DNA of 63,684 nucleotides, filler included, from Stramenopiles sp. TOSAG23-6 (Eukaryota), in the NCBI GenBank assembly GCA_900128565.1. It is 8 parts of 8 records of this genome, joined end to end, with 100 filler letters (N's around TTAATTAATTAA, not from the genome) between each part and the next. Parts side by side here need not be neighbours in the genome. Positions count along the whole stretch, not along the records: positions 1 to 11,782 come from LT636240.1; positions 11,883 to 23,663 come from LT636241.1; positions 23,764 to 35,528 come from LT636242.1; positions 35,629 to 47,366 come from LT636243.1; positions 47,467 to 59,182 come from LT636244.1; positions 59,283 to 60,683 come from LT639111.1; positions 60,784 to 62,184 come from LT639112.1; positions 62,285 to 63,684 come from LT639113.1. One strand, given 5' to 3'. Each line of letters starts with the position of its first letter. The first letter of the stretch is position 1. The notes below the pieces were generated by a model. That model saw nothing but the letters and a program-made list of their open reading frames with translations. It made no database searches and was not told where the DNA came from. Made by a program: the position numbers and the translations under genes. Shown piece by piece: positions 43 through 63,684 of the stretch.

Positions 43-1419
43 GATTATTCATGGATAAATAATATGAATGATTTGACTTCAAACATGTTTTTTAAACTTC
101 AAACTGATGGACGGCATCAAAGTGAAGATGTCGAAATGATAGCTAGTAAAACAGTAGTTAGAGGTGTTCAAATGGTGATTTTGTATTTTGCTGGTAATTA
201 TTATTGTCAATTACGTAATGGAGAAGGCGATGTACGTTTTCATTTCAATTTTGAATTTTTTTTTTTTTTTGTTTTTCGTACGAAATGTTGTACCTAACAA
301 ATTTTTTTAGAATTTTTTTGAAATATTTTTTCATAATACATCATTCTTTATTAAACACTCGATTTCCAGATGTTAGTTGGCAATCAAGAGGGTATATGAT
401 TCAACATAGTAATCCTGTTGATCATCCTCATTTTCGTCAATTAAGTTTATGTATGTTTTAGAATCAGCATAAAATTCAAAAAATTAAAAATTAAAAAAAT
501 TCAAAAAATCAAAAATTAAAATTTTTTTTTTTTTTTTTNTACAAAATTTTGTACGTAACAAAAAAAAAAAAAAAATATATATATGTTTCACAATACATGG
601 GAAGGAAGTCCTTCAACAGAGCTGAATCCATTTGGACTCGACACAAATAATATGACAGCATCTGCTGTTGCTTCAGCTGTTACAGGAAGAGATAAAAATG
701 ATAGTGGTATTGAAAATAGTGATGATGATGAAATATTACTAAATGAAAATGATACACAAAAAAAATCACGAAATACGAGTGGACGGTACAATCGTTTTCA
801 AAGAGTAAACACACGAAATACAAGTGAAGAAATCCATGCTACAAAAGTTGCTACTTTACGTGTTAATACGGAAGCTGGTGGTGGTGGACGTAGTGGCATT
901 GGAGCTCTATCACCAAAATATATGAAAAAGAATAAAGAATCAAAACATAGTCATATCAAAAATGAATTTGATAAAAGTTCTGATGAAGATCTTTTTGGCC
1001 CAGAATCATCTGAAAACACGAAATATAGGAATAAAAAAATAATTTCTGCAGATTGTCAAAGTCCAAGTAAAAGAGAATCAAAACAAAAAACAATACATTC
1101 AAACAAAAATATCATACAAGAATCAAGTCCAACAAATACATACAGACCTCATGTACGTTTTATTTTTTTTTTAACAAAAAAATCCAATTTTTTTTTCGTA
1201 CGAAATTTTGTACCTAACAAATTTTCAAAATTTTTTTTTCAATATTTTTCCAAAATACATCATATAGCACCAATGAAACTGTCATCAAAAGCAGAGAGAA
1301 AAGCGAAAAAAAGAGCAAAAAAATTAGAAAAAAAATTAAAAAAGTTAAAAAAGTTATCAGGTGGTGGTGTTGCACCATGGGAGAAAGGAGGGCGTCCGTT
1401 ACTTTTAAGTAAGAAATAA
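43..1419 (+). CDS. Uncharacterised protein, 5'-partial; exons 43-231, 342-450, 599-1152, 1261-1419
   Basis: Removing three family inserts joins ORFs 64..297 and 583..1419 in one frame (GEGD|HSLL...LSL-W-EGSP...RPH|HIAP). Confidence 0.7.
232..341 (+). mobile_element. Introner-like intron GT..AT, flanks at/at
   Basis: gat|gtacgtttt...gtacctaac...cataatac-at|cat. Confidence 0.85.
451..598 (+). mobile_element. Introner-like intron GT..AT, flanks at/at
   Basis: ttat|gtatgtttt...cacaatac-at|gg. Confidence 0.85.
1153..1260 (+). mobile_element. Introner-like intron GT..AT, flanks at/at
   Basis: cat|gtacgtttt...gtacctaac...aaaatac-at|cat; 108 nt, in frame. Confidence 0.8.
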
Positions 1420-1570
1420 GGTATAATTTTAGATGTACAAAATAAAAAATATTTTTACCAAAATAACTAGGATTTTATAATTCTCACTTTTCGTCCCATA
1501 TGAAAAGAGGAAGAAAATTGTAATTGTTATAGTATAACATATTATAACATATTATAACATATACAATATA

Positions 1571-3811
1571 TTATTCACATTTGCATATTTGTTGAGCATT
1601 ATTCAGGGTACAACCATTGCTATATCCAACTTTTCCTTTTTCAATTTTTTCACATTTTACACGGCTATGCCATCCTTGTGTACATTTTGCTTTTTTTGAT
1701 TTGCAAAATTCTTCACAGTTGCCTCCATTTGTATCAACAAGTACCTCACATCCAGATATTTGTGAACAAACTTCAAAGATCTCGTTAGTAGCAGTTGTAC
1801 ACCAATCGAATATAGTTCTTATTTCAGCTGGAGGTGTGGATGTGACTGTACTTATGTTAGTGTAAGGATCTGGTATGTATAAGTATGTACTTTTTCCAGA
1901 AGTAGGATTATTTGCTTCACATTTACAGTATTGATCGCCATACTGCATTCGACACCCGTCACCGATACGACGAACATCATGGATCATTTTACCTGGACAC
2001 TTTCCACTATTTTCATTCGTTCCATTGCTACCACCATTCCATATACAATGACCACTTTCACTACATTCGTATCTGCTATCATATTTACTACAAGTTTCTT
2101 CCCACTTTCCAGGCTTACCCCGATACTCTTTGCTAACAGAACATAGTGATGGACTGTCCCATTTACAACGCTCATTTGGACTCCCATTATCATCTTGCGT
2201 ATTTATACAATCATTCTTGTTTGTATACTGGCTACATATTCTTATCAATTTCACATACTTTGCATGTGGTAAGCTATCTCTTACCTTATCACTTACTTTA
2301 CAATTGGAAGGATTATTCGCATCGTGATTCCAAGCTTCAATACATTTAGAGCCTCTCTGTAAACAAAAGTCTTCACAGTTATGTCCATTTGTATTAACAA
2401 ATACATCACATGCATCCGAATTGGACGAGCAGACTTCAAGAACATCAGGATCATCAGTTGTACACCATATTAATGTAAGTGCTTTTTGTTCTGGTATAGA
2501 TGGCATGGCTGGTGTATTAGTTTGTTGTTGTTGTTGTTGTTGTTGTTGTGGTGGTGGTGGTGGTGGTGTAGGTGTATTAGTTTGTTGTTGTTGTTGTTGT
2601 GGTGGTGGTGGTGTAGGTGGTGTATTAGTTTGTTGTTGTTGTTGTTGTGGTGGTGTAGGTGGTGTATTAGTTTGTTGTTGTTGCGTAGGTGGTGTAGAAG
2701 TTCCATTAGAAATTTGTTTTTCTGGAACATCATTCATAGTTCGTGCTAGATCCCGAATCTGATCATAGAAGCGTTCTAGTTCCTTTGTCCCTCTTCTTAT
2801 TTCCTTTATTAGATTACTATGCTCTCCTTTATCAGACTCTCTCTCACCATATTTTCCTTCTGTATCAGACTCTCCAGACTCNCCTCCACTAAATTTTCCT
2901 CCTTTACCATACTCTCCTCCTTTATCAGACTCTCCTTTATCAGATTCTCTTTTATCAGACTCTCCTTTACCATACTCTCCTTTATGAAACTTTCCTTCAC
3001 CATATTTTCCTCCTTTATCAGAATCACGTTTACCAAACTCTCTTTGATCATCATTGCTTGTATTATCTTTTCCTGTACCTTTCATATTATGGTTTGTCGA
3101 GTGTGTGTTGTTAGAAAACATTTTTTCTTTCAGTGCGTTCAGTTTCTTTTTAACATTTTGCAAATGAATATTATAGTGTGCATTCAATTGCTTCAAGGTT
3201 GATTTCTCCTTGTCAAAGCCTTGTTCGCGTGTCTCATGTACTGTCGTATCACGATGCACTTCATTCAGTTTTTGTACCAGTTTGGACACTTCATCCTTTA
3301 TTTCTTCCAAATCGCTGCTATTATCATTGGTAACGGAATTAGTTGCGGACATATCCTTGGGGTTTCCATTTTGTACATCTTTTTTCTTCTTTTTCCTATT
3401 CGTCTTACCACTTTTATCTTCGGCTATCCCTGTATGATTTTCTTCAAGATTTTCATTTTGAAGTACATCTTTTTTCTTCTTTTTCCTATTACTCTTACCA
3501 CTTTTATCTTCGACTAACTTTGTATGGTTTTCTTCAAGGTTTCCATTTTGAAGTACATCTTCCTTCTTCTTTTTCTTTCTACTCTTTTTACTTTCATCTT
3601 TGACTTTCTTTGTGTAACTATCTTCATTATCAAAGTCCCCAAGCTTACGAACTAGCCAATCAAAGTTAGCTTGTTCAAGCCCTAGGCGACTTAATTTTTC
3701 TTTCAAGCTAGGTAGATCCGTATTTTCTGGTGCTTTCGTTTCCATGAACGCTGTATTACTTTTTGATAGTCGTAAACACGATACGATAAGTATCACTATA
3801 AACTGCTTCAT
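1571..3811 (-). CDS. Secreted protein: signal peptide, Lys/Glu and GESDK repeats, Pro/Gln linker, duplicated Cys-rich domain
   Basis: 746-aa ORF; hydrophobic N-terminus; two WCTT..EVCS..C.V.V.TNG.NCE.FC modules. Confidence 0.8.
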   Translation of the reverse strand: MKQFIVILIVSCLRLSKSNTAFMETKAPENTDLPSLKEKLSRLGLEQANFDWLVRKLGDFDNEDSYTKKVKDESKKSRKKKKKEDVLQNGNLEENHTKLVEDKSGKSNRKKKKKDVLQNENLEENHTGIAEDKSGKTNRKKKKKDVQNGNPKDMSATNSVTNDNSSDLEEIKDEVSKLVQKLNEVHRDTTVHETREQGFDKEKSTLKQLNAHYNIHLQNVKKKLNALKEKMFSNNTHSTNHNMKGTGKDNTSNDDQREFGKRDSDKGGKYGEGKFHKGEYGKGESDKRESDKGESDKGGEYGKGGKFSGXESGESDTEGKYGERESDKGEHSNLIKEIRRGTKELERFYDQIRDLARTMNDVPEKQISNGTSTPPTQQQQTNTPPTPPQQQQQQTNTPPTPPPPQQQQQQTNTPTPPPPPPQQQQQQQQQTNTPAMPSIPEQKALTLIWCTTDDPDVLEVCSSNSDACDVFVNTNGHNCEDFCLQRGSKCIEAWNHDANNPSNCKVSDKVRDSLPHAKYVKLIRICSQYTNKNDCINTQDDNGSPNERCKWDSPSLCSVSKEYRGKPGKWEETCSKYDSRYECSESGHCIWNGGSNGTNENSGKCPGKMIHDVRRIGDGCRMQYGDQYCKCEANNPTSGKSTYLYIPDPYTNISTVTSTPPAEIRTIFDWCTTATNEIFEVCSQISGCEVLVDTNGGNCEEFCKSKKAKCTQGWHSRVKCEKIEKGKVGYSNGCTLNNAQQICKCE
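2505..2695. repeat. (TTG)n/(GGT)n compound coding microsatellite (QQQQTNTPPTPPP units)
   Basis: Visible trinucleotide arrays. Confidence 0.9.
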
Positions 3812-4311: not shown

Positions 4312-6833
4312 ATGTCTAATAATAAATTACACAGAAATGTAACTGCAACACGACACATTAAAGGATATAAAGCATTTCGTCATCGATCGAGTCAAGGCAT
4401 TGAAGAGCAAATGAGCTTAGCTAATAGAATCAGTTCAGATGGAGACCATTTTCTTCGTAAAATTAAAGAGTTGAAAGAATTTTCAGTTCGTTCAAAACAT
4501 ATTGATAGAGTGAATCGAGAGAAAGTTCATTGGCTAGAACGAAACACAAAACTAAGAAATCAATTGTATAAAATAGAAACAGATTTTTTGAAATTAATAC
4601 AGTCAATACCTACCAAGACGAAAAAAACGAAAAAAATAAAAAAAATAAAAATTCAAAACATGCACAAAAGTAAATTTTTGCAAACATCTACAGATTATAT
4701 CGAAAACAATGAAAACATGGATACCATTTTGAAAGATCAAATAGAGTCATGTATAGATCATTTTGAAAATGATGATCAGATTGAACATTCGTTATGTACA
4801 GAAAATACAGAAAATTGTACCAAAAAAAACGAAAACATTGAAATGAATGATGAAATGAATGATGAAATAAGTGATGAAAACATTTTCTTTTTTAACAACT
4901 TTCAAGAATGGTGTGAAACAAAAACAAGGAAACGAAAACAAATGAGTGAATCATTAAAAGACCAACTTGAAGGTTTAAAAGCACTTTATTCATATTTAAT
5001 GCAAAGTAAATCTGTCGTTCAATCGGATACACGAAATATAGAAAAATATACAAATTTTGATTATGTAAATAATTCGCCATTTCAAATTGGTGCACGTCAA
5101 TTTAGTAATTTATTAGATGAAGCTAAAATAGCACAAGGAATAGCACAACAACAATTAGAAATACAAGAAGATAAATGTACTGAAGATGTAGCAGTAGCAA
5201 CAAAAATAGTACGAAAATTAATGAGACAAAAGATTTCAGAAAATACAATTCCTAACCCTAACCCTAACCCTAATGAAAACAATACAAATAAATATGGAGA
5301 AAATGGTTTCAGTCTTTTTAATATTTCAGAGATATTAAACAAGTTAAATGAAGGATATGGTTCGAAAGTCGAAAATAAATTATTAAGAGAAAATTCATTA
5401 ATTGAATTAGAAGATTTTGTAGAAAAATCAAATGTAATGTTGTCAAATATTCGAAACGAATTTATACAAAAGTCGAAAAAAATATTTTTAGTCGTTTCAA
5501 ACCAAAATGAAAATGATGAAACAAAAATATTTGAAGAAAAAAATTTCGAAAAAATGATTTTTGAGTATGGTGGTTGGTCCAAAAAAATGCATGAAAAGTT
5601 TGTTCATTTGCATACAGAATATGCAGGGAAAAAAATTAGGGGTAATGAAGTAAGACGTAAAGAAATGTTTCATTCACGATTAATGGTTGAATTTCCTAAT
5701 TTATCGATTAGTAGTGTATGTTTTATATGAATTTCTAATTTAATTTTTTTTTTGTTTTCATACGAAATTTCGTACCTAACAAATTTTAGTTTTTTTTTTT
5801 TGAAATATGTTTTCACAATACGTGTAATACAACATTTATCATGGTACGACTCATTTCGATATTGGCAAGTTCATACACGAAATAGCAGAAAAGATATATA
5901 TCGACAATTGAAGTGTAAAGTAAAGCAAATTATTCAAAAATTAAAATCAAATTTTGAACGTGTACAAAAACATGAAAAACGAAACAAAATGTTATCTTTA
6001 TCTCAAAAATTAACTCAAGCACGACACGAAAAACTTGTAAAAATGCGATTAGAATTTCAAACAAAATTAGCAATCCAAGAATTTCAAAAGGAAAAAGAAA
6101 AAAACGAAAAACAGAAAATTGAAGAATTGCAAAGATTTGTTCGTAAAAAAGAACTCATCCAAATGAAAATGAAGATTAAGGAACATCAGAGAAAAAAAGA
6201 ATTAGCACAAAATGAGCTACAGAAAGAAATAATGAAGCAGCAAAAATTATTGGACGCAAAATATAATGAAATGAGTGAAATAAATAAGAAACGCGTGGCG
6301 ATGCGAGCACAAAAAACAGCTGAAAAAATTCGTCTTCGTAAATTAGAAATTGAACTTGCTGAGAACGATCGGTTCAAGTTGACAGAACATTTGCAGAAAT
6401 TGATCAGTTCCACTCCTTATGCAGATCGAATAGCTTCCTTACAAATAGATAGGAAGTATGTTTAACCCTAACCCTAATCATTCATTTCAATTTAATTTTT
6501 TTGTATCTTCTCTATTATTCTTTTTTCGTCCCTAACATTTTTTTTTCTTGACGTACTTTTTCACTATACAAACGAGTTCAAAGTTCAACTTTTAAATTTC
6601 GTGCATATCAAGAAAAAACTGCAGATATAGCTGCTGCAATAGCAAATAGACGCACAGGAGGTACAAAACTTCTTGGTCAAAGTCATTTTGGTTTTACTGA
6701 TGATCAAATATTTTCAGATGTTCGTTTCAATATTCAAGAAGCACTTCGGGAACGAGGACTGATAAAATCAGGTGTTGCACGAGATATGTTTTCATGTAAA
6801 ATTATTCCACCATACGCTCATGTTTCAGAGTGA
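4312..6833 (+). CDS. CCDC148: Coiled-coil protein, CCDC148-like; exons 4312-5715, 5824-6455, 6572-6833
   Basis: Spliced C-terminus GFTDDQIFSDVRFNIQEALRERGL and GGWSKKMHEKF motif resemble CCDC148. Confidence 0.7.
5716..5823 (+). mobile_element. Introner-like intron GT..GT, flanks gt/gt
   Basis: agt|gtatgtttt...cgtacctaac...cacaatac-gt|gta; joins two long ORFs in frame. Confidence 0.85.
6456..6571 (+). mobile_element. Introner-like intron GT..AA, flanks aa/aa; carries (TAACCC)2
   Basis: aggaa|gtatg...cactatac-aa|a cga gtt. Confidence 0.8.
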
Positions 6834-11782: not shown

Positions 11783-11882
11783 NNNNNNNNNNNNNNNNNN
11801 NNNNNNNNNNNNNNNNNNNNNNNNNNTTAATTAATTAANNNNNNNNNNNNNNNNNNNNNNNNNNNNNNNNNNNNNNNNNNNN
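11783..11882. other. Artificial contig linker N-TTAATTAATTAA-N (also 23664, 35529, 47367, 59183, 60684, 62185; plain N gap 46978-47107)
   Basis: Identical 100-nt cassette with six-frame stops. Confidence 0.97.
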
Positions 11883-11970
11883 AAAAAATCTAAAAAAATT
11901 TGTTAGGTACAAAATTTCGTACGAAAAAAAAATTCAATTTCAAAATTAAAAAAAAAAAATTAAAACATAC
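11883..11970 (-). mobile_element. Introner-like intron, truncated by gap
   Basis: gt|gtatgtttt...cgtacgaaattttgtacctaac on minus strand. Confidence 0.8.
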
Positions 11971-12970
11971 ACACTAAACCAGGAAGACTGTGATGTGTCA
12001 TAAAAGTAAAAATTGCATTTCCAAATAAACCAGATAAACCCTCTATATTAAAAAACATTTCAGATGGTAGAGTTGATGGGATTTTTGCTTTTGTGCCAGA
12101 GCCATCGATTCCAAATATATAAAGTGCAGGAAGTAGAAACATAATTGAAAATGCTATAAACCGTACAAAAACAACCATGACTTGTAAGTATTGCGAAAAT
12201 ATACATATATATATATATTTAATGTGTTAGGTACACAATGTTTTGGAAAAAAAATAGGTAAAAAAATCTTTATGAAAAATATCGTACAAGTAACGCGTAT
12301 TTTGAAAATTTCCCATACAGATTGGTACCATAAGTAACCATAAAACCATAGTAAAAAAGTAGTAGCTTTGTATACCTAGTATATGCGTCGTTGATGAAGG
12401 TGTCACTGTAAGAATGGATTGTACAATGCATACGGCATATGTACATAGTGTGCCAAGGAGATAGAGAACTAATGCAAGATAGCTCATCCAAAGAAGATAA
12501 CGCTGAGATTTTCGTCGAGTAAAAAACATTTCACAAAGTTCAGAAACTTCGATTCGATCTTGAAGAGAAAATAATTCATTGCTTTTAGGGTTAGGGTTCT
12601 TCAAAGGAACATCAAGTAAAGGCATTGAAAGACTATTTGAAGCAGTAGATGTATCATCTGGTGTTGGTATACTACTGGGATTAGAATTGTACATGTTTGA
12701 AGACTCTCTTCGCCAATACAAATTCCTCTTTGGCTTTTCACTCACACTTTCAGTAACACGAATAGCATTAGCTATTGACATTGCCTCGATAACAAAAGTT
12801 GCTGTGATGAATCCTAAGAGACAAACTAATATTAGAAATAGAGTAGATAAAATAATTCCAGCGCCTTTGAATGCATATGGCAAAGTCAATACTCCCGTAC
12901 CAAGAGCAAAATTGAAGAAAAACANTGTAGCAATGGCAGTGCCATATGTATCCACAGTAGTTTCTCTCAT
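11971..12970 (-). CDS. TMEM104: Amino-acid transporter family, TMEM104-like; exons 12970-12288, 12185-11971, 3'-partial
   Basis: FNFALGTGVLTLP; spliced NTRYLQV; FMTHHSLPGL. Confidence 0.75.
12186..12287 (-). mobile_element. Introner-like intron GT..TT, flanks tt/tt
   Basis: tac tt|gtacg...cgcaatac-tt|a caa gtc; restores the TRYLQ motif. Confidence 0.9.
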
Positions 12971-18744: not shown

Positions 18745-19417
18745 ATGAAATTCAATATATTTGTAATAGCTTTGATAGTAATGCTATCGACGATCTCCTA
18801 CGCCTTGGTAATCGATGATAAAGTTCGAAAGCTTCAAAATGAACTGAGACGTCTAAAAGAAGATGAAGCTCTTTTGGCTCTACAGAAGGCAATGTTAGAC
18901 AAAACATTCAATATAAACGGACAAGGAAATGGTGGACAAACAGTTTTTATGTCAGCTGTACTTGGAGGAAATATATCAATAGTTAAATGGTTACTTACAC
19001 AAAAACGTGTGGAATTTATGATACCAGAAAAGGATGGCTATACCCCAATGCACGGTGCAGGTTTCCAAGGCCGTGCAAAGATTGCACAGTTGTTGATTGA
19101 CCACGGTCTTGCATATGATGATTTACACGAAGATGGTTATATGCCAATTCACCGAGCAGCATGGGGTCGGAATACTCGACATACAGACACAGTCAAAGTA
19201 TTTCTTGATGCAGGAGCCAAGCCTACTTTGTACATTTTCATCATGAATTTCAATTTTTTTTAGTATGAAAACTTTGTACCTAACGAATTTCAAATTTAAA
19301 TACTTTTCACAATACTTAACTTCGAAAGATGGTAGAAGCTTGTTACAGCACACGTTAAACTCGTCAACTATGCAACTGCTAAAAAAACGGAAATCAATTC
19401 AACACCAAGATTTGTAG
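18745..19417 (+). CDS. Secretory-pathway ankyrin-repeat protein; exons 18745-19229, 19318-19417
   Basis: Signal peptide; GQTVFMSAV, GYTPMHGAG, GYMPIHRAA; spliced C-terminus HQDL (KDEL-like). Confidence 0.85.
19230..19317 (+). mobile_element. Introner-like intron GT..TT, flanks tt/tt
   Basis: act tt|gtacatttt...gtacctaac...cacaatac-tt|a act tcg. Confidence 0.85.
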
Positions 19418-19774: not shown

Positions 19775-21798
19775 CTACGTCACTATTTCTGGTTCAATAT
19801 CACCAGTAGACTGATCATCGACAACTTCTTTCGCTGCTGCGGATACTATTTGTGCAGCAACACCAGCCTGAAAGCAAACATCTTCATCATCATCTTTCAT
19901 CATATTTTCGAGCCTCATTCTAGCACTTGAAACAATTTCATCACTGATATCTGAACACCTCAACAAGCTAGCAATTGCACCAGCGGCTGCAATACGTACA
20001 TTTGGTACATCTTGCCGACCAGCATCGATACAAACTTGAGCAAGTATAATACCAACTCCATTTTTTTGTAATTCAAGCAAAGATTTTATTGCATATAGAC
20101 CAGTGACTCTATCTAGGTAATTCGTCGCATCACCGTAGAAATCAAGAATAGCGGGTATTAGTTCAATTCTCAACCACTCGTCACCAATAGTATCTACCAA
20201 TTCACACAAAGCCTTTGCAGACGATCTACGAACAGCATCAACGTCATCTGTTAAAGATTGCATTAAAACCGGTAATAATTCTTTCTTATAAAAGTCAATA
20301 TCAAGCACCGTTGCTAACTTAGGTAACTGACAAACAATTTCTCGTCTGATTCTCCACATTCCATTTTCAGTCGAAGTTGCCAATCGAATGATTTCTGGAA
20401 GAAAAGTGGCTTGAAAATCATCTGGCCCCAATACATTTGAGATTTCACCCAAACGTGACAATGTGTCTATGCGAGTTTTAAAGTCATTAAATTCGTCTCC
20501 CTGGACAAATGATAAAATATGGCTGCCCATTTCGTCAGGCATGACACTCAAAAGGTCAATTGCTGCCGCAGCAAGAGTAACTCGGACAGCTTGCGCATCG
20601 TCCATCAACAACTCACTAAATACATTAGTTTCAACAATTTTTGATCTAAAAGCTTCAGTCCCGACCAACTCACAATAACCTACAATACCAGGAGATGCAG
20701 CAATTCGGACTTCTCTCTCAGGATCAGTTAATAGAATAGTATAGCCCTCTAGTAGTTCTGTACGTGATATTTCGCTACCCAACTCCTTCGAGATATTACA
20801 ATGTATTTTGGAAAAATATTTCAAAAAAACATCGTTAGGTACATAATTTCGTACGAAAAATAAATTCAAAATTGAAAAAAATTAAACATACATACTCCTT
20901 GGCAACATGTTTTCGAACACGCCACGAAGAATCTTGTAAACATGCTTTCACGATTGGTATTACTTGTGACACTGCTTCAGAGCGTGGAAGTGATTTAGCT
21001 AAATTCGTATTTGCATGTATTCTGGAAAAATATGCCAAATTCGAAATATGTTAGGTACGAAAATGTTTTTTTTTTCGTAAAAAAAAAAAAATTTTGAAAA
21101 AAAAAAAAAAGGAAACGTACATGAATGACAAGCACCCTCACAGAATCGGATTCATCATTCCATAACTGTTTAAATTGTGCTAGTAATTCTGAAAGTAAGA
21201 ATTCGGGCTCAACTTTATCTACCATGACACCAAACACTGCTGCAGCTGCGCGGCGAACCATAGGAGTTTCGTCTTGACAATTTGCTAAGTAAATGTTGCG
21301 AAGAATTTGATGTGCTTGTGGGTCTGTAGAAAAATTATAAGTATTCGCCACTAATGCACACGAGGAAACTCGTGAAGTAAACCAAAGTGCTTCGGATAAA
21401 CGGCGAATTATTGGGACAAGAACTTGGTCTACTACGCTACTGGAAAGCTCGGCGGCAATTGTGCAAGTAGATTGTACTGCCATGTCTCGCACCACAGTTT
21501 CTTCAACACCGCATAAAACTTCTAGAATTTCTAAAAGACAGACTGCATGATGTGCACCCCCTACAAGATCAACAAATTTTCCCAAATTCTCTGCCATTAG
21601 CAATAACAGTTCATCATCTTCTTCTAAGAAATTTTTCATGGCTGGTACTAACTCGCTGCGAGTACGCTCAGGACCGACTGCCTTTGCTAGCTTACTCACT
21701 GCTCTCATACACCGCACACGCACTTCCATATCATCGCAACGCAAATCTTCTGTAAAAAGCTTGATTGGATCAGAAGTAAGCGTTACAACCTCCATCAT
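19775..21798 (-). CDS. PPP2R1A: PP2A scaffold (A) subunit-like HEAT protein; exons 21798-21121, 21014-20892, 20800-19775
   Basis: AVGPERTRSELVP, VEETVVRD, WFTSRVSSC, DETPMVRRAAA, DSSWRVR, DVPNVRI. Confidence 0.9.
20801..20891 (-). mobile_element. Introner-like intron GT..AT, flanks at/at
   Basis: gag tat|gtatgttt...aaaatac-at|tgt aat. Confidence 0.9.
21015..21120 (-). mobile_element. Introner-like intron GT..AT, flanks at/at
   Basis: att cat|gtacgttt...agaatac-at|gca aat. Confidence 0.9.
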
Positions 21799-23566: not shown

Positions 23567-23663
23567 GTATGTTTTATTTTTTTTTCAATTTCGAATTTAT
23601 TTTTTTCAAAAAAATTTGTACCTAACAAATTTTAGTTTTTTTTTTTGAAATATTTTTCCAAAA
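23567..23663 (+). mobile_element. Introner-like intron, truncated by gap
   Basis: gtatgtttt...gtacctaac...tgaaatatttttcc. Confidence 0.75.
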
Positions 23664-23763
23664 NNNNNNNNNNNNNNNNNNNNNNNNNNNNNNNNNNNNN
23701 NNNNNNNTTAATTAATTAANNNNNNNNNNNNNNNNNNNNNNNNNNNNNNNNNNNNNNNNNNNN

Positions 23764-23831
23764 AAAAAAATTTGTTAGGTACAAAATTTCGTACGAAAAA
23801 AAAAATTCATACAAAAAAAAATAAAACATAC
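23764..23831 (-). mobile_element. Introner-like intron, truncated by gap
   Basis: tat|gtatgtttt...cgtacgaaattttgtacctaac. Confidence 0.75.
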
Positions 23832-29633: not shown

Positions 29634-29673
<40 letters not shown>

Positions 29674-39857: not shown

Positions 39858-39894
39858 AGGTTCAGAGGGCAAGTGCTATGAAATAGCATTAAAA

Positions 39895-42489
39895 TCACAT
39901 CAAATCATTATCATTTTGCATCAGTGCATTACCAAATCTAAAAACAATAGCATAGCTAAAATCATTTTTACCATACCAGCCAATGTTATTCGCTTTATTA
40001 TTCCTTCCAGGGCTACTTTTATGATCAATAATTTGTGCATCTTCCCACCATTCATTTTCACGTATTTGTCCCTCGGACTGTTCTGTATTTTTGAAATGAT
40101 TTGTATTATTTGTATTATTTGTATTTTTTGTATTGAAATAATTGCCCACATCAAGAGAAGAATCTTCATCCCAAGGAGGCGACGTGTGTTGTAATTCAAT
40201 TCTACACGTAACTTTCTTAAGTCCACGAAATTTGCAAGTATTGTGAAAAAATATTTTTTTTTCGTAAAAAAAAAAAATTCGTTAGGTACAAAATGTGTGT
40301 AGTAAAAAAATAAAATTTCAAATTCAATTTTGAAAACATATAATTCCAGCAACATTTGGGCAAAGAATCTATTTTTTCTTTCATACGTTTTTTTTCTAGT
40401 TTTTTCATTCTCATTTTTTCAAGTCTTAAAAATTCTTTTCTATTATTTGACGAAGATTTCGTTAAAGAACATTTTAATACATTTCGTGTACTTCGACGTT
40501 TCACAGGACTTTTATATTGATGTATACCCAATATTGTACCAAATGTTGTCCCTTCCGAATTTTTTATGAGTCGTTTGACATTTTGAATTTTTGATGGACT
40601 TTTCGTGCGGCTTCGAAGTTTTCTATATTGAGACTTTTTTACAGTTTTTAGAGGGATGTATTGAAAGAGAATATGCCATAAAAAAATATCGTTAGGTACA
40701 ATTTTTTTTTTTTTTTTTTTTTTTTANGNAAAAAAAAATAAATTAAAAATTTAAATATTGAAAACATACATATCTCGAAAGCGACAACCTTGTGTATCTT
40801 CAAGACTTTTGAGCATTTTACTTGATTTCCCATTGATGATTTCAGTGACTTCTTTTGTTGCACAATGAAGTTTACATCCCTCACTTAAAGCTAATTTTTT
40901 CAGGGTAGATTTTCTTCTCTTTTTTGATAATTCACATTTTGACAATGATTTTTTTTTCTTATTTCTAACTCTATTTTTATTGATATTGATTTCAACTTCC
41001 TTATTCATATCCTTGTACGTATTAATACGCAAATGATCGATTTCGCGTATCATATCTTGGTTTATAATTTGATCATCCACCATGCACTGTAAAAAAATAT
41101 GTTTTTTTTGTAAAAATAATGTTTGGGACAAAACTGTTTTTATGGAAAAAAAAAATGTTAGGTACGGAATTTCGTACGAAACAAAATTCAATTTTGAAAA
41201 CATACACATCTTTTAAAGCCTCAACGTCCTCAGTTGGCGATAAAACACGAATAGCATGTTTACATAAACAACGCCCTTCACCATATCTTGAAATATCGCT
41301 CATTACGTAACCAGAGCCACAACTCTGAGTCCAAGATGCAGATTTATCACCCATAACCAATGTTTTGTGAAAAAAAAGTTTTTTTTTTTTGATTTTTTTG
41401 TTAGGTACGAAATTTTTATAAAAAACAAAATAACTTTTTGTATGAAAAAAAAACGTACTTGAAACTTCACGTAAACATGGTCCTAAAGTTACACCAACAA
41501 TAATATGACCACCATTGGTAAATGGATCTTGATGAAGTCCTCGCTTACTTTTACGTCCCATACTTTGACGAATGAGTTGTTAAAAATATATATTTTTTTT
41601 TCGTTAAAAAAATCGTCAGGTACGAAATTTTCTATGAAAAAAAAAAAAAAGATATTCATGATGAAAACGTACATGAGTTGTACTACGTGAAGCGGCGCTG
41701 TTCCAATCTCATTTGAAAAATGGCGGCGTACTATTGCTGCAGCTTCATCAAGTATTGTACCTTCAACACGCGGGGCACTATCTCCTAATTGGTATTGATT
41801 GGATGAACCACTCTTTACCCAAGAACGAGCACAAGTATTGTGAAAAAATATTTCAAAACAAAATCGTTAGGTACGAAATTTCGTATGAAAACCAAAAAAA
41901 AAAAATTAAATTAGAAATTCATATAAAACATACACATTGGTAAATTTAATTTCTCCTGTGCTTCAAACTCTTCCTCTAAAGCTTCAGTTTTGCACCACAG
42001 TTCCCACATTCCTTCCTTGGCAAGCTTAAATAGTGGGCGATGAGCACGACTGCTTCGGGTGGGTATTTTTGAAGAATTATGGTTTTCAAAATTTTGAAAG
42101 TAACGAACAATTCTTCTGCACATCTGAGGGTCAAATATATCCGAAGACGCATTGAAACCGCGCTCTTTGAAATACTGGCGCTCTTGATGTCGTAGAAATG
42201 CGCGTTTACGCCGTTCTTGCTTCTGGAGCTTGAAAGAGATCAACAAAAATGAGACGATAATCAAAAGTAATCCAACACATTTAAAATATAGTACATAATT
42301 TGTTGACACCACTTTGTTGAAGAGTGTAATAACGAATGATAACTGATTAAATACAGTGCTGTGAGCTGTCTTAAAGTCGTCATTTATAAATGGCATGATT
42401 GAAAATGCCACTATCAGTACAAACAAAGTAAAAATTGAAATTAACGTATAATCATATCTATATTTTTTGAGCTTTTTAGCATTAGCCAT
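39895..42489 (-). CDS. Membrane-anchored protein with AlkB-like 2OG-Fe(II) oxygenase domain; 7 exons
   Basis: Two N-terminal TMs; spliced GLHQD..IVGVTLG..GSGYVM..SRY..KHAI (HxD..H); frame continuous after removing six inserts. Confidence 0.6.
40236..40341 (-). mobile_element. Introner-like intron starting AT, ending TT, flanks tt/tt
   Basis: aat t|atatgtttt...gtacctaac...cacaatac-tt|gc aaa. Confidence 0.75.
40656..40769 (-). mobile_element. Introner-like intron GT..AT, flanks at/at
   Basis: gat at|gtatg...tcaatac-at|c cct. Confidence 0.85.
41082..41205 (-). mobile_element. Introner-like intron GT..AT (flanks gt/at)
   Basis: gat gt|gtatg...tacagtgc-at|g gtg. Confidence 0.75.
41360..41458 (-). 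mobile_element. Introner-like intron GT..AT (flanks aa/at)
   Basis: tca a|gtacg...cacaaaac-at|tg gtt. Confidence 0.8.
41572..41672 (-). mobile_element. Introner-like intron GT..AT, flanks at/at
   Basis: ctc at|gtacg...acaactc-at|t cgt. Confidence 0.8.
41833..41933 (-). mobile_element. Introner-like intron GT..TT (flanks gt/tt)
   Basis: atg t|gtatg...cacaatac-tt|gt gct. Confidence 0.82.
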
Positions 42490-42990
42490 TCGCAATACAA
42501 TGATGTGGGAGAAAGAAAGAGAGAGAGAGAGAGTTGGAGAAGAGAGAGACTGCAATAACTCAGATGATGTCTCCAATCAATCGCACTCACAAATTGAAGC
42601 GTTAAAATAAAAAATAAACGTACGACGACGAGTCAACGTACGTCAACGACGTCATACCGTAACCACAATGTCATTATAAATTATAATCAAAGAATAAAAA
42701 ACAAAGTCAAGAGTATACAAAATAAATATAACGCTTTATAAAAACACCTCACATTATAAACACTATTATAAACACTTTTCGACTTTGACTTGCAGCATAT
42801 CCCGTGCAAGCAGATCACAATACATTCTCACACTAAATGTATCTTATACACACCCACATCATACATATATGTAGACACATCATACATATGTAGACACATC
42901 ATTTTGCAAACTCCCAATTTTGACTCCCGGGATTGGCTTCTTTTTATAGACAGTTGTTACAAAACCCCCTGGTACATTTGCCGGGGTTTA

Positions 42991-46977: not shown

Positions 46978-47466
46978 NNNNNNNNNNNNNNNNNNNNNNN
47001 NNNNNNNNNNNNNNNNNNNNNNNNNNNNNNNNNNNNNNNNNNNNNNNNNNNNNNNNNNNNNNNNNNNNNNNNNNNNNNNNNNNNNNNNNNNNNNNNNNNN
47101 NNNNNNTCTGTCTTGCTTCTTCTTTATGCAATACGTCTATCGGAATAATAATTTAGTACTATAAAGAAGTCGAAGGCAGAGAGGTCTCTTTGGGGGTTCC
47201 ATCCATGTCAAAAAATCGGACGCTGACCTCGGACAGACCTGCCTTGAAGAAGATTTTTTTCAAAATTTCAAATTTCAAATCGACTTATCAGATTATCTAA
47301 TATTATATCCAAAAGAACACTGAAGTAGCTACAAGTGAGTGCTTACAAACATACAAATATATCATGNNNNNNNNNNNNNNNNNNNNNNNNNNNNNNNNNN
47401 NNNNNNNNNNTTAATTAATTAANNNNNNNNNNNNNNNNNNNNNNNNNNNNNNNNNNNNNNNNNNNN

Positions 47467-49540: not shown

Positions 49541-49630
49541 GTACGTTTTCAAAAAGTAAATGTTTTTTTTTTATAGAAAATTTCGTACCTAACAAAAAAA
49601 ATGAAATTTTTTTTTTTTTTCACAATACAT
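49541..49630 (+). mobile_element. Introner-like intron GT..AT, flanks at/at
   Basis: aca gat|gtacgtttt...cacaatac-at|gag. Confidence 0.85.
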
Positions 49631-57620: not shown

Positions 57621-59182
57621 TTATAATACAACTTTCTTTTTGGATTCCAGGATAAACATTCCTCCAATCAACAGTATAATCGACGCTCCTGGCGCCACTA
57701 GCACTAGATGAAATGCATCAAGAGCTATGGCAAGCAAGGCCATTAATCCAATGAGGAAAAGCGAAAGTATAACAACGATAAATTGTTCAATTGAAGAAGA
57801 AATTGCTGAGATATCAATTTCACGACCATGATTTTCATCAGAATATCCTACTGTTGTGAGATAGTATGCAAGTGTGTTCAGAAAACTCACATAAGGATGG
57901 CGACCATGATTACTTCCTCCTTCTTCTGCCCATCCAAAGCCTTCCCATACATTTTCACATAGGAAACGAATTGGGGAGAGAAACATATGAATAACATCAG
58001 CACCTGTAAGCAACTCATAGTTTCCTATCTTTAGAGGAGGGGATGATGCATAGGAAGAAGCTAAAATATTATTAACCATAATATTCCCATGAATAGTAGT
58101 TGGCGCATATATACCTCTCTTTTCTACCTGAGAAATACGTGTAATAGTAGATGATGACATGAGACTTTGTCCAGAATGCATGTGCCAAAGAATATCACCA
58201 ACTTCCACAGTTTCTGCCAAGACAGGCTTGCGAGAGCTTATGCTTTCACCAGCAATGACAAAATGGTTACCAGTTAGTTCTAGTATACCCCCACTCTCTG
58301 TTTCTAATCGAAGAAATCTCTCGGTGATTTTCCCATCGCGATCCGCAAAAAGGTAAACTTTGGAGAATTCATTTGGTCCAACAAGAACTTCATCACCAAC
58401 TTGCAAATCTTCCATCAAGATACGCCGAGTTTTGTTTATATCAACCTTAACTTCAACTGTGGCATCGGCAGGAAAGCAAGCATTTGCAGTGGGACAGCAA
58501 GTCCTCGAGACAGAGTTTGGATTTGCACCTTCTTCTTGAGGGCATTTTGCTAGTTCATGTATTATGAAAAATATTCTTTTTTTGTTAGTAAAAAAAAATC
58601 GTTAGGTACAAAATTTGGTACAAAAAAATAAATTTCGAAATTCAATTTTGAAGACGTACGTATTTATAATTACCGTAACTGCCCATTTGAATATCCGTGT
58701 AGCACATACACATTCCATTTGTACAGGATCCCCTTGTTGATTCCGACGGACCACCAGGAGTACAATTAACACCTTTTGGTTCCCCGGTATTTCCTTGAGT
58801 CACAACGTTAGTATATGCCAAATCCTCATCATATCCCATAATTTTGTAGGAATTAGGTGCAAAATAGCATCCATATATCCAATCACCTTCCTCTCCAAGA
58901 CGCCTTCCTCCTTTCCCTCCTCCCTTTGACGTCTTACCTTTTGGTGAATTTTCAGATTTCTTTGATTTCTTTGGTTTCTTTGGTTTTTTAGGTTTTTGTT
59001 TTTTAGGATTTTTGTTTCTCTTTTTCTCTCTGCTCTCCTTTCTACTTTTCTCTTGCGGCGTCGGGTCGAAGCCATTATGAGCAGAATAGAAAACAAAACA
59101 TTTGTTTGACGTATCTAAACATGTAGATGTAGAACATTCCACAAAGTATGAAGCCCCCGTCTTTCCCATTTCCGCTTTGATA
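57621..59182 (-). CDS. Hedgehog-type Hint (Hog) domain protein, 5'-partial; exons 59182-58660, 58556-57621
   Basis: A-CFPADATV..MEDLQVGDEVL..LELTGNH..GIYAPTTIHGNIMVNNILASSYA; HPY sterol-recognition-like region; C-terminal TMs. Confidence 0.88.
58557..58659 (-). mobile_element. Introner-like intron GT..AT (flanks ac/at)
   Basis: aaa tac|gtacgtc...cataatac-at|gaa cta. Confidence 0.85.
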
Positions 59183-59282
59183 NNNNNNNNNNNNNNNNNN
59201 NNNNNNNNNNNNNNNNNNNNNNNNNNTTAATTAATTAANNNNNNNNNNNNNNNNNNNNNNNNNNNNNNNNNNNNNNNNNNNN

Positions 59283-60683: not shown

Positions 60684-60783
60684 NNNNNNNNNNNNNNNNN
60701 NNNNNNNNNNNNNNNNNNNNNNNNNNNTTAATTAATTAANNNNNNNNNNNNNNNNNNNNNNNNNNNNNNNNNNNNNNNNNNNN

Positions 60784-62184
60784 GGGTGACATAATTTCAC
60801 CCCATGGTGTCGAGTTTATGTTTTCTAGATTTTGAGGTAATTCTGAACCTCCTTCCCCATTACCAACAATCATAGAAATCCCATTTCCTAACCAATTTGT
60901 TATTCCTTCAGTTACCGACTTTCGCCTTCGAACAGCAGCAACACCACCTTCAACACCATGTCTAGTTAATCTTTCTTGTAATAGCATGATTGCCATTAGA
61001 AATTCCGGATTATATGGCCCAGTTTCCCGAAGTTGACAGGTTTGTAATTGCTTAATATCAACACCACTATCTCTAATTATTTCAACAATAGATTCCAAAT
61101 ATTTAACTGATTTATTCGTAAATCCCAAATCGGCAAGTATCTCAGCATATTAGATCTAGGTGATACAAAAAGTCGGGGGTTGCCACCCAATTCTTTTCTA
61201 TGATTTCCACCAATTAAGACCATTCGTGCATTTAAATCAGGAATATCAACAGGCCGTCCTGAGATTAAATAACAAATATGTGTAATAAACAAATATGTCA
61301 AATTCAAAATTCATTAGGTATAAAAAAATATAAATTTGGAAAATCTTTTTTGTTTAGGTACAAAATTTCGTACGAAAACCAAAAAAAAAATTGAAATGCG
61401 TAATTCAAACGTACATGAGCGATTTCCACACACATTTCCGACGACCACAAACGGTCCCCAAGATTACACATAACATCATAGTCATCAGCTACAGGATTTG
61501 TCAAAATAGCAGCAATATTTTCCCTCCAATTCTGAAGTATTGCTAGGCCATACATAAAAGGAAAATATTTCAAAAATTTTATTTTTTTTGTTAGGTACAA
61601 AATTTTCATAGTAATTTTTTTTTTTTTTTTTTAATGAAAAAGTACATGAGGCGTGTCGTGAATCATAGATTCCGCATCTCCAGCGAAACGCATATACGTT
61701 GATCGGGCAGGATTTCCTAAATTATATGATGACGCAGCAAACTCTCTTACTACGTTTTGGTATAAGGATTCTCCAGTCACAGATGATATAAGTAAAGCGT
61801 GAGCCCACATTTTTGATTTCATTGCAAGATCGACAGCAGTTTGTCTATCACCCAAAACAAGCAAATTCTCGATTTTTTTCAAGTTCTTTGAACGTTCTGA
61901 GTCACTTATCGTAGTAGTACTATTTTTATTTTCTGAATTCTCTTTAGCTAATTCATGAGTATTCCATGTATTTTGGCAAAATATTTCAAAAGAAAATCGT
62001 TAGGTACAAAATTGTGTACGAAAAAAAAACTCGAATTTGAAAAAAAATAAAACATACGTCCTTCTAAAAGTAAAGCAGCAACATCACTTTCGGGGGAGCC
62101 TTCCAGATTAATTCCAGAATTTTCTGTTTCCGGTGTGTGCAAGAGGCCTTTATGTTTATGAAAAATTCCTAATAATTTCCATAG
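60784..62184 (-). CDS. SEC16: Sec16-like COPII protein, internal fragment; exons ..62058, 61965-61646, 61549-61415, 61277..
   Basis: PESDVAALL; LLVLGDR..A...MWAHALLISS; NWRENIAAILTN; LGDRL; spliced AH|ICYL. Confidence 0.8.
61278..61414 (-). mobile_element. Introner-like intron GT..AT, flanks at/at
   Basis: gct cat|gtacg...attacac-at|att tgt tat; restores AHICYL. Confidence 0.88.
61550..61645 (-). mobile_element. Introner-like intron GT..AT, flanks at/at, degenerate 3' motif
   Basis: cct cat|gtactttt...gtacctaac...ttatgt-at|ggc. Confidence 0.75.
61966..62057 (-). mobile_element. Introner-like intron GT..AT (flanks ac/at)
   Basis: gga c|gtatg...aaaatac-at|gg aat. Confidence 0.85.
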
Positions 62185-62284
62185 NNNNNNNNNNNNNNNN
62201 NNNNNNNNNNNNNNNNNNNNNNNNNNNNTTAATTAATTAANNNNNNNNNNNNNNNNNNNNNNNNNNNNNNNNNNNNNNNNNNNN

Positions 62285-63659
62285 TTGATTTTGAAAATTT
62301 GTTATATTGACAAAATTGTGCATATTTTTCATGTGATTTGGCAAGTTTTATTTGAAATGTAGCTATTTGTAATGTCCATTGATGTTTTTGTATTTGCTGT
62401 TTTTGTTGTATTTCAGTATTTTTTTGTTCATTAGGGTTAGGGTTTACAGGGTTAGGGTCAACAATTATTTTTTTTTTTTGTATTGAAAATAAATTTTGTT
62501 TTTTTTCTTTAGTTGATTTTTTTGTCATACAATCAACATTTTCAAGAGTACAAATAAGCACAGGACTTGATGAATCATTTAAATTCATTGGAATGACAAA
62601 AGCTAAAAAATCAATTTTTAATTCTACAAAAATTCGTTTTGAATGAATCATTGCATCAGCAAAAATATTTCGTGATTCTTGAATTGATTCTATTAATTTA
62701 CGGTTTGTAAGTTTTTTAGGTTTTTCAGGTTTTTTAGGGTAATTATCTGAGTCTGGAATATTGTTTGTAGTGTTGTTGTTTGTATATATTTCACTATTTT
62801 TTATATTTTTTTCAATATTNTTTTCAATATTTTTTTCAATGTTTTCAATTTCAATATTTTTTTCAATTTCTGGAGTTGAAAAAAATAAAAGTAAAAATTC
62901 AATACATCGTTTGTTATACACAAATAAAATAGGAGAAATTTGAAATTGAACATTCATATCTAATANATCATCTGGAGGATTTTTATGAATGAAAATACGA
63001 GCTATACATTTTCTATTTGTACCTTTTTCGTGTTTTTCATGTTTTTCGTGTTTTTCATGTTTTTGATATTTTGGTTTAATTATATATTTAAATTCATTGT
63101 TTGAATTATTTCCATTATTTTCACTATAATNATCATTAATATTGTCACAAACCTGTAATGAATCCAAAAGTAGTTCAATAGTATTTGACATAATCATTTT
63201 TTTATAATGATATGATCCTTCAAACATAATCATCAAAGACGATTTTTTATCAAATTTTTCATTTTTAGCAAAATCATCAAAACTTTTCGTACGAAATGTT
63301 GTACCTAACGATTTATCAAAAAAATGTTCAGTCACTAGTGATATTCTACAACATTTTAGATGTAACTGAATATCAGTCATAATATAATCTATAGGTACCT
63401 GATAAGTATTGATATTCACAGCATCTTGTGAGCTTAATGTAGTGATATCCATACCCAATTTTTGACTTAAAGAAAAAATATCTACTTCAAAATCATCATC
63501 AATTCCATGTATTTTAGAAAAATATTTCAAAAAAATTCTAAAAAATTTGTTAGGTACAACATTTANTATNAAAAAAAAATTCGATTTTTTTGCNAAAAAA
63601 ANAATAAAACATACATTCTCCCCAATGGCCCAATTGTACCAACCTGCCCAAGAATAATC
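62285..63659 (-). CDS. VPS13-like protein, internal fragment; exons 63659-63615, 63506-62285
   Basis: SWAGWYNWAIG; PIDYI...LHLKCCRISL; ISPILFVYN..IEFLLLFF; FVIP....SPVLICTL. Confidence 0.6.
63238..63335 (+). mobile_element. Degenerate introner copy antisense to, and read through by, the VPS13-like ORF
   Basis: ttttcgtacgaaatgttgtacctaacg core on + strand inside the minus-strand ORF. Confidence 0.65.
63507..63614 (-). mobile_element. Introner-like intron GT..AT, flanks at/at
   Basis: gag aat|gtatg...aaaatac-at|gga att. Confidence 0.85.
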
Positions 63660-63684
63660 CTATATTGTGAAGGGAAAAAAAAAA
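63660..63684 (-). mobile_element. Introner-like intron, 3' end only (ends AG)
   Basis: ...cttcacaatat-ag|gat tat. Confidence 0.6.

Follow-up and report, generated by a model that had tools for sequence, protein, structure and literature searches.

A probable introner family in Stramenopiles sp. TOSAG23-6 that resembles small DNA transposons and probably yields introns without a terminal AG

The coding sequences in a 63.7 kb stretch of the draft genome of Stramenopiles sp. TOSAG23-6 (GenBank assembly GCA_900128565.1), referred to below as the window and meaning the whole of the DNA that was analysed, are interrupted by many copies of one short element. The copies form a repeat family, they are bordered by a 2-bp duplication, and they lie in sense to the genes that they interrupt. 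The family is probably an introner, in the form of a small non-autonomous DNA transposon family that makes a 2-bp duplication on insertion and yields introns without an AG end.

In the mechanism that we propose, the element would be a non-autonomous DNA transposon of about 90–150 nt that duplicates 2 bp, mostly AT, at a loose C-AT-G target. In one orientation it would open with a yeast-like 5' splice site, GTAYGT, and would further supply a TACCTAAC branch site, a U-rich tract and a conserved 3' end. Sense insertions in coding sequence would persist, the pre-mRNA losing exactly the element and one copy of the duplicate. The resulting intron would not be of the GT-AG type; most likely it would extend from the GT of the element through the end of the 3' duplicate, and would then be GT..AT in 28 of 38 copies.

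A repeat family in unrelated genes

The string GTAYGTTTT occurs 28 times in the window against 2.5 expected, a count reached by none of 100 shuffles, and a 20-nt core enclosing the branch-like motif is present 13 times, where 0 are expected. A profile hidden Markov model (HMM) of 14 copies aligned over their full length was used in an nhmmer search of the window and gave 41 matches at E<1e-3. These counts bear out the repeat family described in the original prediction, a first reading of the bare sequence, and the search carries out, for the window, the HMM check that it had proposed. By reading the HMM matches and their neighbours we curated 38 complete copies, 86–184 nt long (Table 1), where 41 had been claimed.

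The copies have the form NN-GTAYGT...TACCTAAC...U-rich...ATAC-NN, NN being the flanking dinucleotides. The element starts with GTACGT in 16 copies and with GTATGT in 15 (GTAYGT in 31 of 38), with G at +1 in 37 and T at +2 in all 38. Its last four bases are ATAC in 26 copies, the final C being present in 36 and the A before it in 33, and the conserved 3' end reads ...TTTYCAMAATAC. The TACCTAAC-like branch motif, at a median of 38 nt from the junction (about 34–50 nt before the 3' end), is followed by a T-rich tract, and the centre of the element is a 16-nt palindrome that extends into the branch motif. The donor-like 5' end and the branch-like motif are therefore present as originally described.

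Median pairwise identity is 0.69, and young subfamilies exist: the copy at 41833–41933 is 97% identical to the copy at 28729 and 95% identical to that at 5716, the three lying in unrelated genes. Copies are found in genes for PP2A-A, a WNK-like kinase, Sec16-like, ankyrin, Hint and transporter-like proteins. The defining trait of an introner, many similar copies present as introns in unrelated genes, is seen here in the 41 HMM matches and the identities of up to 97%. In the DNA metagenome run X2 the summed depth over the element-bearing bin is ~43,000, against 6–8 over single-copy parts, and four element copies run up against contig breaks, which is what an assembly that breaks within a high-copy repeat would show; both observations fit thousands of copies per genome. 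The small size (86–184 nt), the lack of coding capacity and the thousands-fold depth agree with a miniature inverted-repeat transposable element (MITE), whereas the terminal inverted repeats of at least about 10 nt that are usual in such elements are missing, there being only GTAT(G)TTT and its complement at the 3' end, ~4–8 nt with mismatches. The 2-bp duplication and the very short inverted ends of the MITE-like element that was originally proposed are both present, in a repeat that has amplified recently.

A scan of public metagenomes with the 20-nt core found one contig, L001 (3.2 kb), with a full copy at 2450–2580 (-) that has AT/AT flanks and lies within an open frame. This contig also bears a possible ordinary GTAAGT donor further along and CCCTAA-like motifs. 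The same scan of viral sequences gave no match. A match of the core in a bacterial gene, from the scan of prokaryote genomes, was taken as chance, as no other feature of the element accompanied it.

Target-site duplication

The dinucleotides on the two sides of the element are equal in 30 of the 38 copies (AT 23, TT 4, GT 1, AC 1, AA 1), close to the 31 of 41 originally counted by hand. Because AT dominates the flanks, the matches other than AT are the telling cases. When the 3' flanks were shuffled among copies 200,000 times, 0.79 such matches were expected against the 7 observed, and none of the permutations reached 7. The flanks are a true 2-bp target-site duplication with a preference for AT. 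The target logo is roughly palindromic, C-AT-G, with C at -3 in 16 of 38 copies and G at +3, after the duplication, in 21 of 38.

At 35627–35819 (+) two copies stand head to tail with one AT in common, and 34831–34982 (+) is a composite with two branch-like motifs; both look like insertions beside or into older copies.

ISL2EU transposons make a 2-bp duplication, typically AT, and prefer AT-rich targets (PMC4122938). These features of the ISL2EU group of the PHIS superfamily are shared by the element, the comparison concerning the duplication only (PMC4122938); the transposase, the THAP or YqaJ gene and the long terminal inverted repeats of that group have no counterpart seen with the element here. 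A mobilising transposase of the ISL2EU/PHIS kind is a guess, since the class is deduced from the duplication alone.

A telomere-like pair, CCCTAACCCTAA, occurs 19 times in the window with at most one mismatch, on both strands, against 0.11 expected; the sites include 5250–5273, 6466, 12585, 16304, 24610, 26673, 29065, 29921, 32167–32393, 33877 and 62431. At 6466, 29065 and 24610 the pairs lie just within element copies, near their 5' ends, and at 5250–5273, 12585, 16304 and 26673 they are in frame in long open reading frames (ORFs) as Pro-Asn repeats. Short telomeric insertions at repaired breaks, or else a second small element, may account for them.

Reading frames and proteins across the junctions

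For each of the 38 copies we asked whether removal of the element gives an ORF that crosses the junction with 25 or more codons on either side. Removal of the element plus 2 nt bridges 35 of 38 junctions, against 11 for the element alone and 13 for the element plus 1 nt; the removals that give the same frame behave alike, with 34 junctions bridged at -1 nt and 33 at +5 nt. One of the three unbridged copies is beside Ns, one is outside clear coding sequence and one is at the end of the window. After removal, single ORFs cross seven junctions (28067–30152, 389 codons) and six junctions (39898–42576, 678 codons), and four further ORFs cross three junctions each.

The frame test sets the removed length modulo 3 only; the exact length is set by PP2A-A, the scaffold subunit of protein phosphatase 2A. 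Aligned to a chain of the solved human structure (2pkg_A), exon A ends at residue 217, exon B (41 residues) covers 218–258 and exon C begins at 259, so both junctions, 217/218 and 258/259, are without gap or overlap. The removed length of the element plus 2 nt (modulo 3) and two residue-exact junctions are thus directly established, and the restoration of PP2A-A that had been predicted proves exact to the residue.

Other genes give less precise junctions. In the WNK-like kinase the exon upstream of the junction aligns with WNK3 as far as the end of subdomain X, the exon downstream, which is short, has a weak match (E=0.18) to subdomain XI of PAK/OSR1 kinases, and the spacing at the junction, with the split codon counted, is that of PAK kinases; the restored subdomain XI of the original prediction is hence only weakly supported, by this short exon. 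The strings AHICYL and TRYLQ do arise at junctions on removal, the exon before the AHICYL junction matching Pfam TPR_Sec16, and the IQ motifs lie within exons. For the TT copy at 19230 a junction at +2 would suit the ankyrin period, with Pfam Ank 1-28 ending one residue before the exon end; the exon downstream gave no ankyrin match.

All 38 curated copies are sense to the ORFs that they interrupt. Among the 41 HMM matches one is a partial copy antisense in an ORF (63284–63320), three (32402, 35627 and 39791) are outside clear coding sequence, and the rest are sense, in agreement with the claim that nearly all copies would be. The partial core at 63284–63320 (+), in a VPS13-like open frame on the minus strand, would be translated; no other antisense copy was seen in an ORF. 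The strand bias, the splice motifs, the frames and the homology together suggest removal in RNA, presumably by the U2-type spliceosome.

The ends of the introns

When the introns are read as GT..NN, their 3' dinucleotides are AT in 28 copies, TT in 5, AG in 2 and GT, AC and AA in one each (n=38). That few end in AG had been predicted, with a count of 4 of 41. The further claim that almost any dinucleotide is accepted goes beyond these counts: AT makes up 28 of the 38 ends, just 8 differ from both AT and AG, and at least one of those 8, the copy at 5716, has an in-frame ...CAT site 12 nt downstream.

For the two PP2A-A introns, where homology fixes the junctions, three registers (GT..AT, TG..CA and AT..AC) give one mRNA, all of them without a terminal AG. 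Intron 1 holds an AG just 7 nt before its fixed junction; this AG is skipped, and its use would shift the frame. An AG lies between the branch motif and the junction in 13 of 37 copies, at a multiple of 3 in only 1 of these. The ambiguity of register is general among the 30 copies with matched flanks, in which GT..NN, NGT..N and NNGT..AC give identical mRNA.

The eight copies with mismatched flanks include those at 37821, 41082, 41360, 58557 and 61966, which had been listed as such before, and also 31736, 41833 and 25554. Their 3' dinucleotide is AT in five and AG in two, and their 5' dinucleotide is GT, AC, AA or AT. This suggests that the 3' dinucleotide is the constrained one, which favours GT..NN, in numbers too few for a test. 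The genes of the mismatched copies lack Pfam families, or else the copies fall in stretches that are not conserved, and at 58557–58659 the registers yield the same residue. The copy at 41082–41205 also stays in frame as a canonical GT..AG intron by way of an upstream GT.

On balance we favour a cut at GT..NN, with some confidence, since the first six bases of the element are the U1/U6-binding consensus placed right at the presumed cut, since G at +1 is conserved in 37 and T at +2 in all 38 copies, and since the 3' dinucleotide is AT in five and AG in two of the eight mismatched copies. On a bolder reading, about which we are nearly evenly divided and lean slightly towards doubt, the second splicing step would proceed without reading an AG: the 3' cut would fall two bases past the conserved ...CAMAATAC end, or at a measured distance from the branch site, any duplicated dinucleotide would serve as acceptor, AGs 5–8 nt upstream would be passed over, and one ISL2EU-like miniature transposon would have given most introns of a compact genome.

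Two stretches deserve separate mention. The stretch 24489–24651 (-) has a GTAAAA start, a telomere-like pair, the 3' half of the element and a ..CACAG end; the frame would need a removal 2 nt shorter or 1 nt longer, which may reflect an assembly error or a different cut. In the copy at 41572–41672 (-) the 9-nt repeat of the exon end could have arisen by deletion, by repair or as a longer duplication.

Weighing the interpretation

Several observations weigh against introns of transposon origin that are cut at GT..NN. Flanks are mismatched in 8 of the 38 copies, including the youngest-subfamily copy at 41833–41933 (GT/TT), the terminal inverted repeat is very short (GTAT../..ATAC, about 4–8 nt), and no transposase was seen in the window, with no DDE, THAP or YqaJ domain in the 9+10+7+6 ORFs scanned, a scan that was not exhaustive. 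As to the cut itself, 30 of 38 copies cannot separate GT..NN from NN-GT..AC, the copy at 40236–40341 (-) has A at +1 (ATATGT) within the reconstructed ORF of 678 codons, and the stretch 24651–24489 (-) is out of frame both as GT..AG and by the rule of the family. The draft is moreover rich in Ns, and single-base errors are possible. Transcripts had been proposed as the check on the junctions. Over the stretch 35629–40726, metatranscriptome contigs cover exon parts (37976–39509), none among those listed bridging an element, and the joints were swamped by cross-matches from one element copy to another. Element depth is very high in RNA runs too, for which pre-mRNA, excised introns and DNA carry-over are all possible sources. 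Among transcript-derived proteins there was no near-identical one for PP2A exon C (near lengths, E<=1e-30, a threshold too strict for distant relatives and not for identical ones), and neither the exon after 37915 (first 70 residues, shorter proteins) nor the transporter exon (longer proteins) had a match at the E-value threshold.

The same element and the same mRNA would also result if both cuts fell two bases to the left, giving an intron made of NN plus the element and ending in ..ATAC, which for the common AT duplication would be an AT-AC intron spliced by the U2-type spliceosome with GTAYGT at +3 to +8. The GT..NN acceptor of the original prediction is accordingly one fit among three that are equal for 30 copies, and the AT-AC reading had not been considered there; we regard it as rather unlikely. 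It leaves the mRNA of the 30 matched-flank copies identical, major-type splicing is compatible with introns that start with A and end with C, and no terminal feature is as constant as ..AC (C in 36 of 38, preceded by A in 33). Fritillaria, too, widely uses 3' AC and AT ends (PMC13326754). On the other hand, the match to the U1/U6-binding consensus falls exactly at the GT..NN cut, the shifted introns would start with AT in 24 copies, GT in 4, TT in 4, AA in 3 and AC in 3, and the five of eight mismatched copies with AT only at the 3' side, with two others having AG there, fit a constrained 3' site better. The common copies, read as AT..AC in this one of three registers, resemble AT-AC introns, which are U12-type or, rarely, U2-type. 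In U12-type introns the 5' site resembles ATATCCTT or GTATCCTT, and the branch site, TCCTTAAC, lies 10–20 nt from the 3' end. The family departs from this consensus at both ends, the 5' logo being GTAYGTTTT and the branch-like motif lying 34–50 nt from the 3' end (median 38 nt from the junction), not 10–20.

Other explanations concern the origin of the copies. Excised introns might have spread as RNA, by reverse splicing into other transcripts that were then copied back, as has been proposed for fungal introner-like elements; the terminal AT would then be borne by the intron, and there would be no duplication. An element that by itself makes up a whole, self-sufficient intron, with no more than a very short inverted repeat, would suit such spread, AT on both sides of most copies could be the AT of the element plus a preferred site, and AT is found at the 3' side in five of eight mismatched copies. 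We nevertheless think it very unlikely: an element-borne AT cannot produce matching flanks other than AT, and seven of these are present (TT four times, GT, AC and AA) where 0.79 were expected; the roughly palindromic C-AT-G target logo is what a transposase would give; and partial or tandem copies occur outside coding sequence (35627–35819, 32402, 39791). It is also highly improbable that there is no mobile family and that these are old ordinary introns, alike only through strict splice signals and AT-richness. The most conserved columns are indeed the donor, the branch motif and the 3' end, and median pairwise identity is only 0.69; against this, copies in unrelated genes are 95–97% identical over their whole length, signals and intervening parts alike, the copies share an internal palindrome of 16 nt, depth in DNA runs is thousands-fold, the flanks co-vary and the assembly breaks within copies. 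Finally, the inserts could be removed from DNA in the manner of ciliate internal eliminated sequences, the window then being a germline-like genome. Short elements bounded by a 2-bp repeat, with exact excision that leaves one repeat, recall the TA-bounded eliminated sequences (bioRxiv 10.64898/2026.07.09.736142). Excision at the DNA level would be indifferent to the gene strand, whereas all 38 curated copies are sense and only one partial copy is antisense in an ORF. This strand bias and the donor and branch motifs carried by the elements make it unlikely, and with the standard genetic code, ORFs of up to 1044 codons and DNA contigs of the metagenome run X2 that hold exon-element junctions, we find it barely credible.

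Relation to known systems

The cited portions of work on Fritillaria borealis describe a genome in which most introns are non-canonical and a TAC in the exon before the intron is found again at the intron's 3' end (PMC11282704), AT and AC being the commonest 3' ends (PMC13326754). Its MITE-derived introns (AG/AC, AG/AT) are, as here, not GT-AG and have AT/AC 3' ends (PMC13326754); in both cases an exonic repeat recurs as the last intron bases and the 3' site comes from the target duplication (PMC11282704), and the U-rich tract of the present element is matched in most Fritillaria classes (PMC13326754; PMC11282704). The Fritillaria introns differ in their 5' AG, their YAY/TAC triplet and their many classes, against GTAYGT, 2 nt, a strong TACCTAAC motif and one dominant family here. 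U2AF1/U2AF2 are duplicated in Fritillaria. The Fritillaria type, a 5' AG after exonic YAY with YAY as the last three intron bases, does not describe the copies: 37 of 38 begin with GT, a C precedes the duplicated AT in 16 of 38 only, and the AT copies end in CAT, which fits YAY at the 3' side only.

Introners of Micromonas pusilla and Aureococcus anophagefferens likewise are DNA transposons, short and non-autonomous, that have inverted ends and a duplication; the element gives one splice site, the duplication helps with the other, and only insertions that can be spliced persist (PMC11282704). Their duplication is of 3 nt and their introns keep the canonical AG (reviewed in PMC11282704), whereas here it is of 2 nt and 36 of 38 ends are not AG. 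The introners of Amoebophrya (Syndiniales) are repeated non-canonical introns with direct repeats over ambiguous borders, as here, and a MITE-like origin has been proposed for them; the cited portion reports an inverted-repeat hairpin of 8–20 nt, direct repeats of 3–5 nt, no consensus motifs and no U1 snRNA found (PMC7789003). The element described here has strong donor and branch motifs, in contrast, and a fold no better than that of shuffles. Nonconventional introns of euglenids and hemistasiid diplonemids share the non-GT-AG borders, the junction repeats and a suspected MITE origin (PMC11282704; PMC12621601), and are described there with base-pairing of the ends, G/C-rich inverted ends and no polypyrimidine tract; the present ones are rich in AT, carry donor and branch motifs of canonical type and show no significant fold. 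Splicing driven by a hairpin was considered as a candidate and rejected, with folds no better than shuffles in five of five copies (z -0.58, -1.40, -0.94, +0.15 and -0.82); the stable end pairing of hairpin-dependent introns is lacking, the ends pairing in one of five minimum-energy folds.

A 3' splice site made from a duplication is already known, from Fritillaria (PMC11282704). The original statement that the architecture had not been described was too strong, as Fritillaria (PMC11282704) and Amoebophrya (PMC7789003) share the principle in the portions cited; what holds is that the exact combination, a canonical donor and branch site with a non-AG end, was not found described in the literature covered (supplements, Huff 2016 and Henriet 2019 lie outside this coverage). 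Distinct here are the canonical donor and branch site with only the acceptor non-canonical, the 2-nt duplication, and one dominant family in a compact, otherwise intron-poor gene set.

Copies, host genes and DNA context

Table 1. Copies of the element in the window, read as introns from GT to the end of the 3' dinucleotide
Feature	Position	Strand	Flanks 5'/3'	Remarks
Complete copy	232–341	+	AT/AT	
Complete copy	451–598	+	AT/AT	
Complete copy	1153–1260	+	AT/AT	
Complete copy	5716–5823	+	GT/GT	95% identical to 41833–41933
Complete copy	6456–6571	+	AA/AA	telomere-like CCCTAA pair close to 5' end
Complete copy	12186–12287	-	TT/TT	amino-acid-transporter-like gene, TRYLQ junction
Complete copy	19230–19317	+	TT/TT	ankyrin-repeat gene; donor GTACAT
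PP2A-A intron 2	20801–20891	-	AT/AT	residue-exact junction
PP2A-A intron 1	21015–21120	-	AT/AT	residue-exact junction; unused AG 7 nt upstream of junction
Complete copy	23185–23279	+	AT/AT	WNK-like kinase gene
Complete copy	25026–25145	-	AT/AT	
Complete copy	25295–25394	-	AC/AC	
Diverged copy	25554–25662	-	AA/AG	AG end
Diverged copy	27960–28059	+	AT/AT	N just downstream
Complete copy	28171–28289	+	AT/AT	among 7 introns removed within 389-codon ORF
Complete copy	28451–28556	+	AT/AT	
Complete copy	28729–28836	+	AT/AT	3' end ATCC; 97% identical to 41833–41933
Copy with telomere-like insert	29055–29201	+	AT/AT	
Complete copy	29338–29467	+	AT/AT	donor GTGCGT
Diverged copy	29599–29784	+	AT/AT	donor GTAAGT; 3' end TTAC
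Complete copy	29895–30017	+	TT/TT	
Complete copy	31736–31837	+	AT/AG	AG end
Composite copy, two branch-like motifs	34831–34982	+	AT/AT	
Complete copy	35694–35819	+	AT/AT	right behind partial copy 35627–35692; outside clear coding sequence
Complete copy	37637–37729	+	AT/AT	
Complete copy	37821–37915	+	GT/AT	mismatched
Copy with A for first G (ATATGT)	40236–40341	-	TT/TT	+0 and +2 both locally open
Complete copy	40656–40769	-	AT/AT	
Copy, 3' end diverged	41082–41205	-	GT/AT	canonical GT(41207)..AG(41087) also in frame
Complete copy	41360–41458	-	AA/AT	mismatched
Copy without usual ..ATAC end	41572–41672	-	AT/AT	last 9 nt equal last 9 nt of upstream exon
Complete copy, youngest subfamily	41833–41933	-	GT/TT	mismatched
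Complete copy	49541–49630	+	AT/AT	pyridoxal-decarboxylase-like gene
Complete copy	58557–58659	-	AC/AT	mismatched; same residue in either register; upstream of Hint module
Copy, 3' half diverged	61278–61414	-	AT/AT	Sec16-like gene, AHICYL junction
Diverged copy (donor GTACTT, 3' end ATGT)	61550–61645	-	AT/AT	
Complete copy	61966–62057	-	AC/AT	mismatched
Complete copy	63507–63614	-	AT/AT	15 codons upstream before window end
5' part of copy	11890–11971	-		cut by N linker
Copy, 3' end cut	23567–23663	+		cut by N linker
5' part of copy	23769–23833	-		cut by N linker
Copy core within longer intervening stretch	24513–24547	-		stretch out of frame as GT..AG
Partial core	63284–63320	+		antisense to its ORF

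The window consists of separate pieces joined at seven places (11783–11882, 23664–23763, 35529–35628, 47367–47466, 59183–59282, 60684–60783 and 62185–62284), each joint being a 12-nt linker with 44 N on either side; piece length is ~11.7–11.8 kb at first and then ~1.4 kb, and adjacency across the joints is not genomic. The DNA is AT-rich (GC 0.27–0.41 in 2-kb windows) and tightly filled with eukaryotic genes that are readable by the standard genetic code, with ORFs of up to 1044 codons. Genes identified comprise PP2A-A, the WNK-like kinase, a PP2C, a DnaJ, an ion channel, a Hint-module protein, and Sec16-like, ankyrin-repeat and VPS13-like genes; a search for rRNA, snRNA and tRNA across the window found none. 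The Hint (hedgehog-type intein-like) module is strong in the exon 57624–58556 (-), with E 9e-32, and the exon upstream of it has no recognised family.

Both introns of PP2A-A are element copies, and all eight introns read in the gene at 27288–30152 have the form of the element. No convincing intron outside the family was noticed in the window, on the basis of a few genes read and not of full gene models.

DNA of the window is present in seawater metagenomes, and marine metatranscriptomes hold small shares of it (X6 0.13, X7 0.11, X10 0.05). The C-terminal exon of PP2A-A (19778–20800, -) has a best identity of 32% among 1.84 billion cluster representatives, of which only 17 reach E<=1e-30, the names of the top clusters being uninformative, and the Atlas matches are PP2A-A clusters from many phyla. 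With so distant a best match the host is probably not a tunicate, and of the candidates weighed from the literature (a larvacean, a diplonemid, a syndinian and Mesodinium) none is supported. Judging from such comparisons, the host lineage is very long-branched and without a close relative in the collections searched.

Implications

U2AF35 and contacts formed during the second catalytic step are the usual explanation for the near-universal AG at the ends of introns, and natural systems that relax the AG rule are rare. If the interpretation given here is true, the family would be an unusually clean case, with a textbook donor and branch site and an acceptor that varies from copy to copy in a known way. 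It would stand beside Fritillaria and Amoebophrya as an independent case in which most introns break the GT-AG rule, recognition of the 3' splice site being the altered step. The requirements of the spliceosome at the 3' end, the way in which a transposon may colonise coding sequence without harm, and the filling of a mostly intron-poor, compact genome with introns by a single element would all become testable, and standard gene finders will mis-annotate this organism.

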